Numbered from the whole stretch's first letter, positions 2,352-44,882 are shown. The stretch is 52,805 nucleotides of DNA, filler included, from Theionarchaea archaeon (GCA_018992565.1; 3 parts of 3 records of this genome joined end to end with filler, not necessarily neighbours in it), one strand, 5' to 3'. A program made the numbers and translations. The notes: a model not told the origin generated them from the letters alone.

Positions 2352-3368
2352 TCAGCTCAAATATGCAATATTTGAAGGACATACCTGGGTTTCATATATT
2401 GTTTTGGGATCAATTGTTTTGTATGCCTCTCTTACAATATCCTCTCCGACAGTGTAATTGAATATGTATGGACTGAACAGTGGGTGGGTGATAAATTCCA
2501 TCTGTTTTTCTGCGCGGTTCTTTGTGGTCAGTCCCATTTCCACCAGGTATTCCACGGCTTCTTTGGGATCGCAATTTTCCTGGTGGACCATCAAGGCTGC
2601 ATTACCGCTGCACCGTGACAGTACATTGAAGGCTTCTGAAATGGCTGTTTCAGTATCTACATCAAGCCCAGCCTGGAATTCCCTGTTCAAATATCCATAG
2701 ACTTCTCTTCTATTTTCAAAAATGAGGGTAAATCCTGCATTAGCCACTCCTTCGCTGATCAAGCATTCTGGTGTATTATACACAAAAATGGAAGCTTCAA
2801 GAAACCCCTTCTCCCTGTAGAGAACTTTTTCTTTAATGACATGGTCTGTATGATGACCTGGATACCCTTCATGAGATATGAGAAGAGGCAACCCTGTAAC
2901 CTGTATGGGGATATCTGTGTTGATTTCCACCCTGGATGTGTACTCTCCCACATACCAGTTGTAGCCACTCCAGGGTTTGTCATGCACCAGGACAAAGTCT
3001 ATATGTTCTTCTTCAGGNNNNNNNNNNNNNNNNNNNNNNNNNNNNNNNNNNNNNNNNNNNNNNNNNNNNNNNNNNNNNNNNNNNNNNNNNNNNNNNNNNN
3101 NNNNNNNNNNNNNNNNNAATACTCTAAGCGTCGTCTTGATTCCCGTAACCTGTTTTTCAAGGTATACTCTGCGGGCTCTGTCTCCTTCAGGTATAGTGGC
3201 TTCCAGATGCTCAGCCTGAAGCAAGAGATAGTCCAGAGACTCCTTTTCTTCTTTTTCGATTCTGGCCTTCAGTTCTTGTGGTCCGCAGTATGCATCAACA
3301 AAACCTTCAAAGTGCTTTTCTACTCTCAGAGCCAGAGTGACATAGTCTTCTCCCCATGTTGTGGTCAT
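2352..3368 (-). CDS. DUF885-like putative zinc metallopeptidase (spans scaffold gap)
   Basis: HEGYPGHH motif plus downstream ISEG; coding sequence on both sides of gap 3018-3117. Confidence 0.65.
   Translation of the reverse strand: MTTTWGEDYVTLALRVEKHFEGFVDAYCGPQELKARIEKEEKESLDYLLLQAEHLEATIPEGDRARRVYLEKQVTGIKTTLRVXXXXXXXXXXXXXXXXXXXXXXXXXXXXXXXXXXPEEEHIDFVLVHDKPWSGYNWYVGEYTSRVEINTDIPIQVTGLPLLISHEGYPGHHTDHVIKEKVLYREKGFLEASIFVYNTPECLISEGVANAGFTLIFENRREVYGYLNREFQAGLDVDTETAISEAFNVLSRCSGNAALMVHQENCDPKEAVEYLVEMGLTTKNRAEKQMEFITHPLFSPYIFNYTVGEDIVREAYKTIDPKTIYETQVCPSNIAYLS
3018..3117. other. scaffold gap (100 N)
   Basis: run of N. Confidence 0.99.
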
Positions 3369-8362: not shown

Positions 8363-10118
8363 CTACTTCTTCTTCCTCACAATATCATACACTATTGAGA
8401 CAAATGCAGCGGCTAGAATGCCGTATACAAGCTCAGTACTGATGACAGCATGGGGAATGTCTCCTGTCTTCTTGGTCGGTGCTCTGTACACTTCCCATTC
8501 TTCTGTGTCTCCAACCTTGATGAGCTGGGAGGGTGCCCGTCTCCCTTTCGGTAGTACAAAAACAGAGGCAGACGTGGGGTCTGGCTGGTAATCAGATGCG
8601 ACTTCCTGCCACATNNNNNNNNNNNNNNNNNNNNNNNNNNNNNNNNNNNNNNNNNNNNNNNNNNNNNNNNNNNNNNNNNNNNNNNNNNNNNNNNNNNNNN
8701 NNNNNNNNNNNNNNCTTGATGAGCTGGGAGGGTGCCCGTCTCCCTTTCGGTAGTACAAAAACAGAGGCAGACGTGGGGTCTGGCTGGTAATCAGATGCGA
8801 CTTCCTGCCACATGCCCAGGGTCTGGGGCCTGCCTGTAGTAGCAGTCACGAAGCATCCCATGATTCCGCTGGGAATAAAAACAATCTCGTTTTCCTGGGA
8901 ATTTCTCCTGATTACCTGTACCATTGCCAAGTTTTCTTGATTCAAATAGGAATCTGAGGGCATTCTAAGAAGTATGAGGAACAGTGAAGGAATTCTGAGG
9001 GTGAGCCGTGAGGATGGCTTCTGATTTAGTGGAGGCCTTTCCTCTCTCTGAGTGGAGAGTCTGAGGATGTCCTCCCCGCTCGGGATTCCTGGATCAGTAG
9101 TTCTTGTGACTTTCATTCCCCTATCCACCCCTCTCCCACCTACTATGCCCACAGTGGGAGCAGCCAGTGACAGGACTATCAGTGATGTCACAACAAGCAC
9201 GTTCCTCCTGCGTGGTGAAATGAGTCCCTCAACATGAGACATGAAAATCCCAGAGAGCATAGAAAGGGGAAGCAGTGCGTGGCCAGCAAACCGTCCTGCA
9301 TACGTGAAGGCCATGGGTACCATGCATACCAGAATACACACAGGGATCAGGAACTCACCTTTTTTCTTTATGGATATGATACTGCCCAGTATCCCCAGTA
9401 GCCAGGGAACGATCAGTATGAACACACTTGAATTGGGAGAACTTGCGGACAGGTTGCTTAGATTTCTCACAATGTGGAAAAGCCACGGGACGTAGAGAAG
9501 CAGAGAACCTCCTGCTATCTTGGCACCAGCGAGAGTCCTCTTGCTCACGACACTGTACAGGAAGAAGGCACACAACACGATGGGCCCCATGCTGATGTGC
9601 GTGTACAGACAGCCAGCCAGGATCACCATCGCTGCCACGTACTTTCCTTTTTCAAACCAGTAAAACAACAAAGGCACTGCCGCAAGAACCAGGGCTGCAG
9701 CTGAGGTGACAGATTGCAGGTTGAAATATTCGTAGCAGGGTGCCAGCACCAGTACAGAGTAGAAGGCAGTTCGAGGCGAGTAGATTCCTCTTGAAACCCA
9801 CCACATGGTACCCAGAGACGCAGGAAACATCACAAAGCTGGTAATCCGGGAAGCTGTGACCATAGTTGAACCCTCTGAAAGGACCATCATGAGACCGTGC
9901 AGCAGTGGAGGGTACAGGTGCGGCCTTCCCAGTGGTGCAAATTCCCAAAAATCCCACAGGACAATTCCCCCGGCCTTCTCAAATGAGAGTGCAACTGACG
10001 CATGATAGTAAATGTCCACAAAGACCGGAAATATATCCCAACGAGCAATGAGCAGCACAATGGTGGCTGCTATTATCCCACCAGACAACATGTCATAACC
10101 ACGATTCACTGCGTTCAC
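8363..10118 (-). CDS. multi-pass membrane protein, GT-C/ArnT-like glycosyltransferase candidate (one gene; gap plus 99-bp duplication is an assembly artefact)
   Basis: DIYYH and YPPLLH loop motifs, many TM helices; ORFs 8592-10118 and 8363-8758 join after collapsing the duplicate. Confidence 0.6.
8516..8813. other. scaffold gap 8615-8714 flanked by identical 99-bp duplicate (8516-8614 = 8715-8813)
   Basis: direct sequence identity on both sides of N run. Confidence 0.95.
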
Positions 10119-10216
10119 CCTCCCTCCTGGATGTGCCCACTAATAAACGTTCAGGTTACTTTCTCCCTTTTCCTGTTCTTCACACCTTCATTCAACAGTG
10201 CTCTTCTGATTAATCC

Positions 10217-10312
10217 CTAAAACTCCTCTGCCATCTTGACTTCTTCATCTTCTTTCATTCTCCAGGCAATAACTGTATATCCTGGGGCAATCTTGTGGTA
10301 TGCCCTCACCAT
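10217..10312 (-). CDS. possible small protein MVRAYHKIAPGYTVIAWRMKEDEEVKMAEEF (alternative GTG start at 10354)
   Basis: GGTGA RBS before ATG; otherwise unsupported. Confidence 0.3.
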   Translation of the reverse strand: MVRAYHKIAPGYTVIAWRMKEDEEVKMAEEF

Positions 10313-10360
10313 TTTCACCAACTTAGAAACAGCCCCCTCTTCTTCCTCTAACACGCATAA

Positions 10361-10396
10361 ATAACCGAAAGCTTTATATAGTATTGTTAATCAATA
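10361..10396 (+). promoter_or_regulatory. BRE-TATA promoter followed by TATTG-N5-CAATA palindrome
   Basis: ATAACCGAAAGCTTTATATAGTATTG, identical to 44857-44882 on the minus strand; palindrome at 10382-10396. Confidence 0.75.
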
Positions 10397-10400
10397 TTAC

Positions 10401-10503
10401 GTAGCAATCTTCGGAGGTGTTACCAGGATTGCGACTCTGATTTCCAGGGGTTGGGGTTTCTCCTAACACGAGAAAAGGGTCCCAGGAAGCCCCAACCTTT
10501 TTT
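10401..10503 (+). ncRNA. candidate ~100-nt structured small RNA (sRNA-1)
   Basis: Own promoter, hairpin GCAATCT/GGATTGC, stem GGTTGGGG/CCCCAACC, T6 terminator, complementary loops GTGTTA/TAACAC; next gene has a separate TATA. Confidence 0.55.
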
Positions 10504-10541
10504 GAAAAAAGTATTTAAGATATGGAAGAGGAGAAGAACAG

Positions 10542-10955
10542 ATGAAATATATCTGGTTAGTAGCAGTATTCATCGGAATTGCAGGGATTTTTCTAGGATT
10601 CCAGCGCTATCAGGTAGACCACACAGAAGCCTTTGGAATGTATCCCTGTTTTCTGTGTTCAGCAGTGGAGCCTGAGGTTGAAGTAACGGTATTCTCTGCT
10701 GTAGACTGCCCGTCGTGCGATCTTGCGGTCCAGAGGGTACTGAGGCTCTGCAGGCTTACAGGAATTCAGTATGGGGGTACGTACTATGACGGCTCGCAGG
10801 AGGCGGGTGAAAACCTGCAGAAGCTGGGATTGGAGAAGAAAACTGATTTTCTGGTGGTGGTTTCTTACAGAGGAGCAGTCATAGGAACCAGTACCAGCAC
10901 TGACAGAGTGGAGGAGTACCTCTCCGACACCGCAAAGGAGGTGGCCCACCTGTGA
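10542..10955 (+). CDS. membrane-anchored thioredoxin-fold protein
   Basis: N-terminal TM helix, CFLC and VFSAVDCPSC motifs. Confidence 0.65.
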   Translation: MKYIWLVAVFIGIAGIFLGFQRYQVDHTEAFGMYPCFLCSAVEPEVEVTVFSAVDCPSCDLAVQRVLRLCRLTGIQYGGTYYDGSQEAGENLQKLGLEKKTDFLVVVSYRGAVIGTSTSTDRVEEYLSDTAKEVAHL

Positions 10956-12637
10956 CATACAAAGCTCCTCGTAGAATTGCCCAGATCCTGACAATTGTTG
11001 TGGTGAGTATGGGAGCTATTGGCATCACCTTGTACTATGTGGTAGTACCGTTCCTGTACACTCCTTATCAGTATTCCTCTGTCTCCGATCCACTGAGGAT
11101 ACTGCAGTTTTATCTGCTGGAGAAAGCAGTCCCCTGGTATCCCTTAGGGGTTTTGATTGTGATATTTGCCATTTTCGGCCGGTTTTTCTGTGGATGGGCC
11201 TGTCCTTTCGGATTCTTTCAGGATATTGTACATGTGTTTAGAGGCCTGGATCTTCCTACCTCAGTGCATAATATCATGACGAAGGTGAAATATGCTGTGT
11301 TGGTAGGGGTATTTGTTGCGTGTTATACCACGGGAACTCCCTATTTTGACCGGGTTAATCCGTTCAGCACATTGGTAGCAGCAATTCCCCGCATGCTTGT
11401 GGTGGGATTTGCTGTGGATACGTGGATTATTATCCGGCTTACTATTTTCTTCTTGTTGCTAGTTTCATTTCTGTTTGTGCACAGGTTCTGGTGTCGATAT
11501 TTGTGTCCAGTGGGAGCTATGGCTGCAATTTTCAACAAGATAGCTCCACTCCACCTTCAGTTTGATCCTTCACGATGCTCCAGATGTGAGGACTGCCTGG
11601 AGGTCTGTCCCACCAGAGTGAATATTTTTGAAGTGGTACGTAAGAGACCGACAGAGTGCATCTTATGCGGCGACTGCGCAGATGTGTGCCCCCAGCAGGC
11701 GCTACGGTTATCTTTTACTGAAAAGGTCGTTATAGACACATATATCTCCCCTGAAGAATCCTATGGACCTCTACATTACCCTCTCCCTCCCACACAGTAT
11801 CCACAGAGAGCGTACCCACCGGAGAGAGAGGAGAAACCTATTTCAGACGTGAGCCTGAGGAAGCTGAGGGGAATCAAGGGGAGGATCATCTACTTCTATG
11901 AAAATGAGAAAGACATTCCTGCCTACATCCAGGAGATGGAGAATCTTCCCAACATACAGAGCTGGCTGGTAAACATGCAAGAAAGCATCAATTTGGTACA
12001 GCATTATATGCTTTCAGGGCCCGCCTTGTACATTAACGGTAGGGTATATACAGGGGAGATGACAGAGGATGCCGTGGTTTCCTTCATGGTAAGAGACTAC
12101 TTTATGCTGAAAAGGCTGAACCTTGTATTTGACACCTCCCGTTGCAGGCCCTGCAAAACCAGAGATTGCATGAGTGTCTGTGAGAAAATAGATGTCACAT
12201 TTGAGTCCAGAATTGAGGTTCACCCCTTGGCTGAGATGGACTGCTTTGCCTGTGGAGAGTGTATCGTGGCCTGCAAGAGGGGAGGTGTGGGTCTGGCCTA
12301 TGGAGAGCCCAAGGTCAATTTCGAACTGAACCTTTCACATCTGGAGTCTCTTCAAGAGAAACTGCTGGAGATAGAGCCTATGACCCTGAAGGCCTTTATT
12401 GAAAGAGATTCTGTTCACTGCAACAAAGTCATTACCATGCTCGCTGCCATTGCGTTCTTATCCAGAGGAAGAATCAGTTTTGAGTTGATAGATGCATTGG
12501 AAGAGCCTGAAAGAGCAAAAATCAATGAAATCAATTTTCTGCCTACGGTTGTGGTGGGGCAGTTCAAGACTCTGGGAGTGCCCACTGAGGGTTCACTGGT
12601 GCTCTTGATAAGGAGAAACGCAAGGTGGAAGGCGTGA
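10952..12637 (+). CDS. NapH/YccM-like membrane 4Fe-4S protein fused to thioredoxin-like and extra ferredoxin domains
   Basis: GRFFCGWACPFG, RFWCRYLCPVG, CxxCxxCxxxCP twice, further Cys clusters CRPCKTRDCMSVC and CFACGECIVAC. Confidence 0.8.
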   Translation: MTYKAPRRIAQILTIVVVSMGAIGITLYYVVVPFLYTPYQYSSVSDPLRILQFYLLEKAVPWYPLGVLIVIFAIFGRFFCGWACPFGFFQDIVHVFRGLDLPTSVHNIMTKVKYAVLVGVFVACYTTGTPYFDRVNPFSTLVAAIPRMLVVGFAVDTWIIIRLTIFFLLLVSFLFVHRFWCRYLCPVGAMAAIFNKIAPLHLQFDPSRCSRCEDCLEVCPTRVNIFEVVRKRPTECILCGDCADVCPQQALRLSFTEKVVIDTYISPEESYGPLHYPLPPTQYPQRAYPPEREEKPISDVSLRKLRGIKGRIIYFYENEKDIPAYIQEMENLPNIQSWLVNMQESINLVQHYMLSGPALYINGRVYTGEMTEDAVVSFMVRDYFMLKRLNLVFDTSRCRPCKTRDCMSVCEKIDVTFESRIEVHPLAEMDCFACGECIVACKRGGVGLAYGEPKVNFELNLSHLESLQEKLLEIEPMTLKAFIERDSVHCNKVITMLAAIAFLSRGRISFELIDALEEPERAKINEINFLPTVVVGQFKTLGVPTEGSLVLLIRRNARWKA

Positions 12638-12639
12638 AA

Positions 12640-13200
12640 ATGAAAACCGTGGTAGGCATCACAGGTGCTTCAGGGGCAATCTACGGAATCAGGCTTCTGG
12701 AGGTTCTACCAGGCGAGAAGTATGTGGTCGTTACTGAAAATGGGAAGGATCTGATTGCTTGCGAGACAGGGTATTCTCTTGAGGATATCAAGAAGATGGG
12801 GACGATGTATGAAGATTGCGAACTGGACGCTCCTTTCTCATCGGGGAGCTTTCTATTTGACAGTCTAGTTGTGGTCCCGTGCTCGACCTCAACGTTGTCA
12901 AAGATTGCCTGTGGAATTGCAGATACTCTGATTACCAGGTGTGCGTCCGTGGCCCTCAAGGAACGGAGAAAAATGGTGCTGGTTCCCAGGGAAACGCCCT
13001 TGAGTACAGTCTTCCTGCAGAATATGGCGGGATTGTCCCTGCAGGGGGGTGTTATTCTGCCTGCTATGCCTGCTTTCTATCATCAGCCTCAGTCAGTGGA
13101 GGATTTGGTGGATTTCGTGGTGGGAAAAATCCTGGATCAACTGGGAGTAGAGCATCACCTATTTCAGCGATGGAGTTCTCACGTGACCACGGGAGACTGA
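12640..13200 (+). CDS. ubiX: flavin prenyltransferase
   Basis: VVGITGASGAIYG, SSGS, VPCS, LKERR, PRETP, PAMPAFY. Confidence 0.95.
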   Translation: MKTVVGITGASGAIYGIRLLEVLPGEKYVVVTENGKDLIACETGYSLEDIKKMGTMYEDCELDAPFSSGSFLFDSLVVVPCSTSTLSKIACGIADTLITRCASVALKERRKMVLVPRETPLSTVFLQNMAGLSLQGGVILPAMPAFYHQPQSVEDLVDFVVGKILDQLGVEHHLFQRWSSHVTTGD

Positions 13201-18178: not shown

Positions 18179-18278
18179 NNNNNNNNNNNNNNNNNNNNNN
18201 NNNNNNNNNNNNNNNNNNNNNNTTAATTAATTAANNNNNNNNNNNNNNNNNNNNNNNNNNNNNNNNNNNNNNNNNNNN
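18179..18278. other. artificial contig linker (N44-TTAATTAATTAA-N44)
   Basis: six-frame stop spacer inside an N run. Confidence 0.98.
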
Positions 18279-24136: not shown

Positions 24137-25205
24137 TCAACCGAATTCATTCAGAAAGTCCTTGATAACCTTTGCATATTCCTGTGGATTGGAATATCCA
24201 GGAGTGTGTCCCGTGTTGTGAAATGTGTGAACCTGCGCGCGTGGATAGAGAGTTTTTAGGTTCTCTCGCACGGGGTTCTTAAATGCAGGGTCATCATCAG
24301 ATTCTATAATGAGGATTCTTCCAGGCCACATGACTGAACCATCTTGTGAGGGTGCGTAATTTGTCACAAAGTCAACTGTACATGCCTGTTGGGCTTTAAT
24401 ATCATCTTTCGTCATGCGAAGAGACACTTCTGTTAGGAAAGCTTTCCAGAACTGATGGTCTGAATCCGGTATTGATAAGAGGTTCATGAGTCTCTGTCTG
24501 AAAGAATTCCGTATCAGCTGCAGGGGGCACAAATCTGTTACAACCTGACCAAATCTCACGAGATTCTTGGAAATCCCTGAAGGTCCTGAAGTATGTGACA
24601 ATATGAGTGATTGGACTTTATCAGGGTAGTGGCGTACAAAACATTGAGCAACCCACCCTCCAAATGAAGTCCCAAGCAGGTGAACCTTCTTCGTGGATTC
24701 TGATGTCAGTATATGAAAAATCCCTTCTGTCATGTCTGCCATCGTGGGTAACGGTGGGTATGTGGGTGATATGATCGAATACTCATTTTCAAGGATCGTA
24801 ATAAGCCGGAACCAGGTTTCAGCAAAACGAATACCGCCAGGAAGCAGTACCAGGGGTTCCTCTCCTTTCCCACATGAGATATATTCCCAGGTGACATCCT
24901 CTCTATCAAGTGTTGTGTATGGANNNNNNNNNNNNNNNNNNNNNNNNNNNNNNNNNNNNNNNNNNNNNNNNNNNNNNNNNNNNNNNNNNNNNNNNNNNNN
25001 NNNNNNNNNNNNNNNNNNNNNNNAAACGAATACCGCCAGGAAGCAGTACCAGGGGTTCCTCTCCTTTCCCACATGAGATATATTCCCAGGTGACATCCTC
25101 TCTATCAAGTGTTGTGTATGGATGAGTTGAGCGAAATGTCTGTAATCGATCTTTCTGGTCTGAAGGAACATTCTCATAGATATCATTAAATGATTTCCTC
25201 GTCAT
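24137..25205 (-). CDS. alpha/beta hydrolase (one gene; gap plus 99-bp duplication is an artefact)
   Basis: GTSFGG nucleophile elbow, DD, TGH; ORFs 24906-25205 and 24137-25186 join after collapsing the duplicate. Confidence 0.85.
24825..25122. other. scaffold gap 24924-25023 flanked by identical 99-bp duplicate
   Basis: 24825-24923 = 25024-25122. Confidence 0.95.
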
Positions 25206-35580: not shown

Positions 35581-35680
35581 NNNNNNNNNNNNNNNNNNNN
35601 NNNNNNNNNNNNNNNNNNNNNNNNTTAATTAATTAANNNNNNNNNNNNNNNNNNNNNNNNNNNNNNNNNNNNNNNNNNNN
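35581..35680. other. artificial contig linker (N44-TTAATTAATTAA-N44)
   Basis: six-frame stop spacer. Confidence 0.98.
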
Positions 35681-41482: not shown

Positions 41483-41582
41483 NNNNNNNNNNNNNNNNNN
41501 NNNNNNNNNNNNNNNNNNNNNNNNNNNNNNNNNNNNNNNNNNNNNNNNNNNNNNNNNNNNNNNNNNNNNNNNNNNNNNNNNN
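41483..41582. other. scaffold gap (100 N); true distance unknown
   Basis: run of N joining two unrelated genes. Confidence 0.99.
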
Positions 41583-44644: not shown

Positions 44645-44843
44645 AAAAAAAGGCCAGATTTCTGGGGAAGAGGAGGGAAAATCCCTCCTTCCCTTTGGGT
44701 GATCCCTTATGCCTCCTTACTCGACCCCGCATTTCTCTCCTACCTCGAAAGGTATTAGAATGGGATAACCCCGGAGCGTGTTTCATGCTAAAAGCAGACT
44801 CATAGGAGGAAAGAATATGGCGGAAGGGGAAATCCCATCTAAT
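44645..44843 (-). ncRNA. candidate ~200-nt structured RNA (sRNA-2)
   Basis: Promoter 44857-44882; 5' stem TTAGATGGGAT/ATCCCATTCTAA; TACC-TTTCGA-GGTA hairpin; GC-rich 3' hairpins and T7 tract. Confidence 0.55.
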
Positions 44844-44846
44844 CAT

Positions 44847-44882
44847 TATTGCTAATCAATACTATATAAAGCTTTCGGTTAT
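44847..44882 (-). promoter_or_regulatory. BRE-TATA promoter plus TATTG-N5-CAATA palindrome
   Basis: 26-bp identity with 10361-10386; palindrome at 44847-44861. Confidence 0.75.

Follow-up and report, generated by a model that had tools for sequence, protein, structure and literature searches.

What kind of element occupies positions 10401 to 10503 of the DNA analysed here, a stretch of 52,805 nucleotides (nt) from Theionarchaea archaeon (GCA_018992565.1; referred to below as the window), and does its product act as an RNA, as a message or as both? From the sequence alone, an independent small RNA (sRNA) had been proposed for this locus, with two hairpins whose loops form a pseudoknot and with a Shine-Dalgarno (SD) motif in one loop that possibly serves as a decoy (in the following, the sequence-only reading). 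Analysis of the locus and comparison with related sequences revealed promoter and terminator signals, an island of conservation, linkage to one operon, an invariant SD sequence and a synonymous substitution pattern of period three. As the most likely reading, at somewhat less than even odds, the unit is taken here for a very small message of the leader type, with an SD ahead of a frame that makes up the 5′ arm of the terminator hairpin.

Conservation and boundaries of the transcription unit

Four sequences were aligned for the analysis of substitutions and pairing: the window, L001 (a contig of a Theionarchaea archaeon metagenome-assembled genome, MAG), L002 (a contig of an uncultured Thermococci archaeon) and L122. 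A fifth variant, the Logan contig of sequencing run X18, was compared separately from this alignment; it differs from the window by 10412 C>T, 10433 G>A, 10448 G>A, 10467 C>T and a 2-nt deletion at 10473. Among genome contigs, the 561-amino-acid (aa) protein encoded next to the RNA has close relatives only in L001 (89% identity) and L002 (75%), the next best match reaching 33%, and both of these contigs hold the RNA at the same location. L122 was obtained as a new variant from a metagenome scan with a 19-mer, which returned eight stretches, six of them unrelated; the other real one, L120, is identical to L002 across the compared stretch. The window holds eight runs of N, including 3018-3117, 8615-8714, 18179-18278, 24924-25023, 35581-35680 and 41483-41582, and none of them touches the RNA locus.

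Across the aligned sequences, the RNA is far more conserved than its surroundings. Identity to the window amounts to 99% (L001), 95% (L122) and 86% (L002) for the RNA, whereas the 137-aa gene behind it reaches 84%, 66% and 65% in the same order. Upstream, a 45-aa frame (10217-10354) shows 71%, 63% and 68%, and the intergenic region 10120-10216 shows 72% and 58%, L002 not being aligned there. In the contig of run X18, likeness to the window begins at 10364, and the sequence further upstream is unrelated. Within the RNA, the 22 nt from 10467 to 10488 are invariant in all four aligned sequences. Judged by these identities, the RNA is under strong purifying selection and constitutes a functional island. 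The 45-codon frame itself lies on the minus strand, divergent from the RNA, and its protein is 41% identical to that of a longer frame in L001; its standing as a gene is doubtful.

The distribution of the RNA is narrow. It was detected in 2 of the 132 genomes of the class (G001 and G002; BLAST and covariance model R1), in 2 of the 33 genomes of the order (covariance model R1) and in 2 of the 3 genomes of the family (pattern search), with the reservation that absence from incomplete MAGs is little proof. Its body is single-copy in each of G001 and G002 (BLAST and covariance model). Beyond these two genomes, the best match of the class-wide BLAST search (132 genomes) had an E value of only 0.047, and the covariance-model searches of class and order gave only partial matches with E values of 0.076-0.99. 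Recurrent BLAST matches to query positions 49-76 were rejected as homologs, the matched region being a coding region in closely related genomes. A scan of viral contigs for the RNA gave no match.

Signals for both ends of a transcript on the plus strand bound this island. The promoter P1 (10365-10380) is of the canonical archaeal kind and consists of a sequence resembling a transcription factor B recognition element (BRE), CCGAAAGC, and the TATA box TTTATATA (10373-10380), and it is identical in L001, L122 and L002. The palindrome TATTG-N5-CAATA lies at 10382-10396, between the TATA box and the predicted start. In four leaderless genes behind promoters of the same type, the ATG follows the first T of the TATA box at 31 nt (three genes) or 30 nt (one gene), and this geometry of 30-31 nt therefore predicts the 5′ end of the RNA at 10403/10404, at the foot of its first hairpin. 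At the other end, a U6 tract at 10498-10503, an oligo-T termination signal, is invariant in the four aligned sequences. With its start taken from the promoter geometry and its end from U6, the predicted transcript extends from 10403 to 10503 and comprises about 100 nt. The proposed independence of the unit is borne out by this BRE/TATA element and U6 end of its own, and by a conservation that jumps at the promoter and drops after U6.

Directly 3′ of the RNA lies an operon (10542-13200, plus strand) that encodes three proteins: a membrane protein of 137 aa with CxxC motifs, a ferredoxin-type protein of 561 aa that resembles NapH/MauN, and the flavin prenyltransferase UbiX (191 aa); by likeness, the products comprise a thioredoxin-like and a NapH-like protein besides UbiX. 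The UbiX assignment is based on TIGR00421 (221 bits), and the other neighbours are NapH-like and HtpX. The operon occupies this place in all four loci with known downstream sequence (window, L001, L122 and L002). On the other side of the RNA the neighbours vary: the window and L001 have a 508-aa membrane protein upstream, L122 has a permease of the ATP-binding cassette type, and X18 has unrelated sequence. In the window, the 508-aa frame (8592-10118, minus strand) extends into one of the runs of N. The 137-aa gene was found in the same 2 of the 33 genomes of the order as the RNA. By this record of co-occurrence, the RNA and the operon travel together, and the unit belongs to the operon behind it.

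The operon also has a promoter of its own, as had been claimed from the sequence, with a TATA box placed near 10510-10518. This promoter, P2 (10505-10519), comprises an A-rich BRE-like stretch and the box TATTTAAG at 10512-10519, is conserved in the four loci and has the spacing of a leaderless gene: the distance from the TATA box to the operon ATG is 30, 30, 30 and 29 nt, and the leaderless genes of this lineage show 30-31 nt. Ahead of the same ATG stands the SD-like sequence AGAGGAGAAG (10527-10536), of which GGAGGAG or GAGGAG is kept in all four loci at 8-14 nt before the ATG. This motif would be present in the mRNA only if transcription began upstream of the start predicted for P2, and the arrangement suggests two kinds of transcript for the operon, a leaderless one from P2 and a longer one carrying the SD. 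Read-through from P1 would account for the conserved SD of the operon, and no other explanation for it is seen. Contigs of the RNA sequencing run X20 contain a single 248-nt piece from this region (11624-11869), which lies in the 561-aa gene; they have no sequence from 10401-10503 and are uninformative on the small RNA.

Fold and substitution pattern of the RNA

The predicted RNA folds into two hairpins joined by a linker of 13 nt, and every element listed in the sequence-only reading is present at 10401-10503. The 5′ hairpin (10404-10432) has 7-8 base pairs (bp) and a 13-nt loop: GCAATCTT (10404-10411) pairs with AGGATTGC (10425-10432) around the loop CGGAGGTGTTACC (10412-10424). The second domain is closed by an outer stem of GGTTGGGG (10449-10456) and CCCCAACC (10490-10497) and contains TTTCTC (10457-10462), CTAACAC (10463-10469) and GAGAAA (10470-10475), with T6 following the stem. 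ViennaRNA favours a long 3′ hairpin over the whole domain (10446-10500), in which 10446-10461 pairs with 10485-10500 in 16 pairs below an apical part of 23 nt; its evaluated energy is −30.3 kcal/mol, compared with −25.8 kcal/mol for the version with the nested TTTCTC/GAGAAA hairpin.

The RNA folds better than chance by only a moderate margin. The whole RNA reaches −37.6 kcal/mol (z −1.9, 6 of 200 shuffles folding equally well), the 5′ hairpin alone a z of −2.6 (6 of 200 as good) and the 3′ hairpin alone a z of −2.3 (5 of 200). The two-hairpin architecture is the same for the window, L122 and L002, with z values from −1.9 to −2.7. Homologs were collected for the covariation check that had been suggested for both stems and for a helix between the loops; they are very similar in sequence, and none of the stems shows a compensatory change. 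The only change in the stem of hairpin 1 turns the pair 10410-10426 from U.G to C-G in L002, and the changes in the 3′ hairpin are one-sided and keep the pairing (10448-10498 from G.U to A-U, 10457-10489 from U.G to U-A). Changes on both sides occur in 0 of 29 pairs predicted by RNAalifold and in 0 of the 28 pairs of the sequence-only reading, 25 of which never vary, in sequences that are very alike. As far as these sequences go, the case for a functional RNA is one of conservation and not of covariation, and the helices are neither proven nor contradicted.

The loop of hairpin 1 displays the SD sequence GGAGGUG (10413-10419). It is invariant in all five variants, and positions 10412, 10420 and 10422-10424 vary around it. 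Its use as a ribosome binding site in the window, noticed in the sequence-only reading, was confirmed: the motif occurs 9 more times, and in 4 of these cases an ATG or GTG follows at a distance of 4-8 nt and starts a frame of 87-561 aa. One of them is the adjoining 561-aa gene, where GGAGGTG stands 8 nt ahead of the start.

Behind this motif, at 10428-10466 on the plus strand, runs a candidate frame of 12 codons and a stop, AUU GCG ACU CUG AUU UCC AGG GGU UGG GGU UUC UCC UAA (IATLISRGWGFS). The spacing from GGAGGUG to AUU is 8 nt in every variant, the same as in the 561-aa gene. Codons 7-12 are the 5′ arm of the long hairpin, the stop codon lies in its apical loop, and U6 comes next. Within 10428-10466, the variable sites are 10433, 10436, 10439, 10448, 10463 and 10466, and all six are third codon positions. 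In the four aligned sequences, the frame has 7 codon variants, every one of them synonymous, and the stop is present as TAA or as TAG. The contig of run X18, compared independently of the alignment, adds changes inside the frame at 10433 and 10448, again both in third positions. Outside the frame, the variable positions on its 5′ side (10420, 10422-10424) and on its 3′ side (10467, 10489 and the deletion at 10473) follow no phase, and changes of this kind would be non-synonymous or frame-breaking.

The chance that six variable sites of 39 all fall into one given phase is 5e-4, and the same value is obtained for the 21 sites that pairing leaves free; simulated random transitions were all synonymous with a frequency of 9e-4 to 3e-3. 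Four other frames carry 9-10 non-synonymous variants each. On the minus strand, the complementary frame counts 7 synonymous against 5 non-synonymous variants and is interrupted by a stop. Two other sRNA-like units behind P1-type promoters vary by indels and adjacent changes, without phase. With respect to the function of the loop, a working SD for the 12-codon frame fits the substitution pattern no less well than a decoy does.

Other coding solutions for the same region were rejected. Frames of 6-7 codons from GUG or AUG at 10417/10420 suffer non-synonymous changes. The complementary minus-strand frame lacks a start and is broken by TAG or TAA in the window and in L002. An extension of the 12-codon frame by stop read-through would be changed or broken by 10489 G>A, 10467 C>U and the 2-nt deletion. 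A precursor of a ribosomally synthesized and post-translationally modified peptide was likewise discarded, as the flavoprotein of the operon is UbiX and not a peptide decarboxylase, and the neighbours are NapH-like and HtpX.

Both an unusual start codon and a frame within a supposed non-coding RNA have archaeal background. In Haloferax, near-cognate codons make up about 30% of the putative alternative initiation sites (PMC7261190). For Methanosarcina mazei, PMC11456600 places 21% of the newly found small open reading frames (ORFs) within previously reported sRNAs.

Possible functions of the RNA

We infer transcription of the unit, initiation at AUU, translation of the frame and a coupling of translation to termination, in the following way. 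Transcription would start at about 10403/10404 from the strong BRE/TATA promoter, and the first 30 nt would fold as a hairpin that displays GGAGGUG in its loop. The motif would act as a real SD sequence for the frame from AUU at 10428 to UAA at 10464-10466, of which codons 7-12 would supply the 5′ arm of the long hairpin abutting U6. With no ribosome present, the hairpin would form and most transcripts would stop at U6, giving a stable RNA about 100 nt long. A ribosome that reads the frame would occupy the 5′ arm, melt the hairpin and shift the ratio of stopping to running on. The run-on transcript would then be a leadered operon mRNA bearing the conserved SD-like GGAGGAG.

If this reading holds, the observed lack of compensatory changes in at least 22 stem pairs would be expected, with the 5′ arm frozen by coding and the 3′ arm by pairing to it. 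Given the 22 invariant bases, the RNA itself probably also binds something, and a dual-function reading would be natural. That the locus is in full an archaeal leader-peptide device, in which the loop SD loads ribosomes onto an AUU frame that is at the same time the terminator arm, and in which translation sets the share of the 100-nt RNA against read-through into the membrane redox operon, must be called unlikely. To our knowledge, neither leader-peptide control nor ribosome-controlled termination has been described in Archaea, and a literature search on these subjects gave only bacterial cases among the matches listed, as far as their titles and summaries tell.

Several points weigh against a translated frame and its coupling to termination. 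No variant of the 12-codon frame has an AUG, GUG or UUG start, the titles and abstract openings returned by a literature search gave no account of archaeal initiation at AUU, and the AUU at 10428 is base-paired inside hairpin 1. The pattern was noticed post hoc in only 5 close variants, from 6 sites and some 7-9 events; once the 6 possible frames are allowed for, the probability of chance rises to about 0.003-0.02. Coding also leaves the 22 invariant nt past the stop (10467-10488) unexplained. Archaeal intrinsic termination is held to need oligo-T alone and no hairpin, and if oligo-T suffices, melting of the hairpin need not alter termination. The operon has a well-placed promoter in P2 and therefore would not depend on read-through, and inspection revealed no antiterminator pairing that competes with the terminator.

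Those 22 invariant nt speak for the main rival, a purely non-coding, trans-acting sRNA, whose GGAGGUG loop, and perhaps the apical loop 10467-10488, would pair with CACCUCC-like sequences in mRNAs, in other sRNAs or at the 3′ end of 16S rRNA. This explanation, which includes the idea of an SD decoy, is on the unlikely side, yet it accounts well for much of the locus: the unit has a promoter and terminator of its own with a 5′ end at the foot of the hairpin, its conservation island extends beyond anything that coding explains, the frame lacks a canonical start codon, and a 5′ hairpin, a single-stranded linker and a terminator hairpin are a typical sRNA layout. The same promoter type moreover drives at least two other conserved units without frames. 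What it leaves unexplained is that the unpaired 13-nt linker varies only at every third base while the other ten are frozen, and a trans-acting RNA would not require the strict linkage to one operon seen in 4 of 4 loci. No target was found either: matches of 16-19 nt in G001 have E values of 0.15-0.45, and RNAduplex across the window gave only meaningless long-loop duplexes. The three matches were rejected as targets, all at chance level: one of 16 nt on contig C13 is the terminator hairpin of another gene, one of 19 nt on contig C3 is same-sense and upstream of a gene, and one of 16 nt on contig C24 lies within an ATPase-like coding region. The 16S rRNA of G002 covers model positions 4-825 only, and none is present in G001, which leaves both genomes without its 3′ end.

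The linkage to the operon is explained more directly by an untranslated cis-acting leader, in which a protein or small ligand on the hairpins and the invariant loop would set the ratio of termination to read-through at U6, as in a riboswitch or a protein-mediated attenuator. It would be consistent with the fixed place of the unit upstream of the operon in 4 of 4 loci while the upstream neighbours change, with a hairpin and U6 that resemble an attenuator, with the invariant apical loop and with a conserved GGAGGAG before an ATG that P2 alone would leave leaderless. It is nevertheless distinctly unlikely: no riboswitch or leader family of Rfam matches even at E values up to 10, inspection gave no helix in competition with the terminator, the conserved P2 has the spacing of a leaderless gene, and the period-three pattern is again without explanation. 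The proposal that a helix between the two loops is functional in the fold has a precise basis, GTGTTA (10417-10422) being the exact complement of TAACAC (10464-10469). All pairs of this 6-bp helix can form in the window and in L001, one of them is a G.U pair in X18 (10467 C>U), and by simple arithmetic a 6-nt Watson-Crick match between loops of 13 and 7 nt has a chance of about 0.004. As a conserved feature the pseudoknot was rejected, since its central pair, 10420-10466, is A.A in L122 and A.G in L002, unpaired in 2 of the 4 aligned sequences and not compensated elsewhere; no pair of the helix is changed on both sides. No bases in the RNA vary more than those on the 5′ side of the helix (10420, 10422-10424), as would be expected of a spacer between SD and start, and a pseudoknotted RNA is a remote prospect. 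More remote still is an RNA with no function of its own, whose promoter and terminator would merely insulate the operon or interfere with P2. The recurrence of the promoter type about ten times per genome and the fact that the RNA is known here from sequence alone would be compatible with this, but irrelevant sequence would have diverged, and the RNA body (86-99%) is more conserved than any of the flanking genes (65-84%).

Known systems, RNA classes and the promoter family

Terminators in which a G+C-rich hairpin precedes a U run are known as bacterial intrinsic terminators, and oligo-T terminators are known from Archaea. The present RNA is like the former in having a G+C-rich hairpin directly before six U, and differs from plain terminators in a hairpin of 16 pairs with an invariant apical part of 23 nt, which is more than termination needs. 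As in leader-peptide attenuators of the bacterial type, the candidate frame overlaps the terminator hairpin with its U tract, and the canonical start of these attenuators is absent here. For mccA of the microcin C operon, a promoter and an SD reportedly precede a very short frame that leads directly into a hairpin terminator, giving an abundant short transcript and some read-through to the downstream genes, a situation named ribosome-controlled transcription termination. The locus described here has the same order, with a candidate frame. The system of mccA is bacterial, and its 7-codon AUG frame reportedly encodes an antibiotic precursor that is modified by the downstream enzymes, whereas the NapH-like, thioredoxin-like and UbiX genes at the present locus give no sign of peptide modification. 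In M. mazei, sRNA41 reportedly uses anti-SD-like sequences to pair with the SDs of mRNAs and so masks ribosome-binding sites. Both sRNA41 and the present RNA are archaeal small RNAs with their key motif in the SD/anti-SD interaction, with opposite polarity, the present RNA carrying the SD itself.

Closest in layout is rnTrpL/peTrpL of Sinorhizobium meliloti, where, according to PMC7298713 and PMC7968998, a short transcript likewise ends at an attenuator terminator upstream of an operon and a tiny frame lies on an RNA that is also stable. That system differs in being bacterial, in its canonical start, in its tryptophan-biosynthesis operon and in the use of Trp codons as the sensor, while the locus described here would have an AUU start and lies before a redox/UbiX operon with its own promoter. 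Among Archaea, the dual-function sRNAs or spRNAs of M. mazei, for example sRNA154 with a small ORF of 20 aa, were at first deemed non-coding and carry a conserved frame, as described in PMC11456600. The frame of sRNA154 is leaderless, with a normal start and Ribo-seq support, in contrast to the SD-led AUU frame considered here, and no relation in sequence or structure was seen between the present RNA and the spRNAs of M. mazei.

Theionarchaea-like sediment archaea have no cultured member, and their gene regulation is almost unknown. The locus provides a precisely bounded small transcription unit under strong selection, linked to a single redox operon and without a match among described RNA families. 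If the frame is translated, it would rank with the shortest conserved genes of Archaea, exemplify initiation at a near-cognate codon (AUU) in this domain and be a candidate for translation-coupled control of termination, so far known from Bacteria. If it is untranslated, the unit would be a lineage-specific small RNA that shows a perfect ribosome-binding sequence, opposite to the archaeal sRNAs that mask such sites.

Membership in known RNA classes was assessed by several approaches. The Rfam comparison that had been suggested gave no match at gathering scores in the whole window, and Rfam 15 at 10300-10600 with E values up to 10 gave only three chance matches of 14-18 bits, compared with thresholds of 45-50 bits. 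In agreement with the sequence-only reading, the RNA is neither a tRNA nor a C/D guide. ARAGORN found no gene for a tRNA or a tmRNA in the window. Archaeal C/D sRNAs have a C box RUGAUGA and a D box CUGA near their ends, with internal C′/D′ boxes; the RNA has CUGA at 10437-10440 and GUGUUAC at the place of a C box, L002 has GUGAUGA together with CUAA, and a second C/D box pair is absent from all aligned sequences. Archaeal H/ACA sRNAs carry ACA three nt past the basal stem and an internal pseudouridylation pocket with a kink-turn; here the basal stem runs straight into UUUUUU, with no ACA. A miniature inverted-repeat transposable element is likewise excluded, the repeated part being the 38-nt promoter alone and the RNA body being single-copy in G001 and G002. 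The RNA is best described as an unclassified, lineage-restricted archaeal small transcription unit, possibly with a dual function.

The promoter type of P1 is shared by a small family of loci. The 17-mer of P1 recurs at 44862-44878 on the minus strand of the window, where shuffled windows give 0.08 matches. The combination of TTTATATA with TATTG-N5-CAATA was found at 7 sites in G001 and 4 in G002, compared with none for the reversed control, and 14 further BLAST matches, with E values up to 0.002 and all within query positions 7-49, concern the promoter only. Such promoters stand in front of two further conserved sRNA-like units and of leaderless genes, and also of genes for small proteins (32 and 50 aa), for secreted proteins of the S-layer-like or FG-GAP type and for a winged-helix regulator. 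The family marks small RNAs, small proteins and envelope proteins that are probably highly expressed. In the window, the palindromic elements are located at 10382-10396 and 44847-44861 (minus strand), and the other loci in G001 and G002 are L136-L146.

The second sRNA-like unit (44650-44878, minus strand; L140 in G001) comprises about 190-200 nt behind the identical promoter CCGAAAGCTTTATATAG with the palindrome and ends in T7. It is nearly identical in G001, with few substitutions and small indels, and carries both CCUCC-like and AGGAGG/GGAUCACC-like stretches; its best Rfam score is 18 bits against a threshold of 58.6 bits. The third unit (L136 in G001, L139 in G002) lies about 40-130 nt past the TATA box. 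About 65 nt of it, including the hairpin GCCGGGG-CUUCGG-CCCCGGU, are nearly identical, with one 1-nt indel and one substitution, and the sequence beyond has diverged. A very short unit at L138 (G001, contig C3), about 35-70 nt past the TATA box, consists of about 30 nt with AUCAUCCUCCU, which resembles the 3′ end of 16S rRNA, followed by a T-run. The rRNA promoters of G002 share the BRE/TATA part and lack the palindrome. At L141 (G002), a palindrome promoter precedes the gene for a 181-aa winged-helix protein (HTH_24/TrmB-like), which may be an autoregulated binder of the TATTG-N5-CAATA palindrome.

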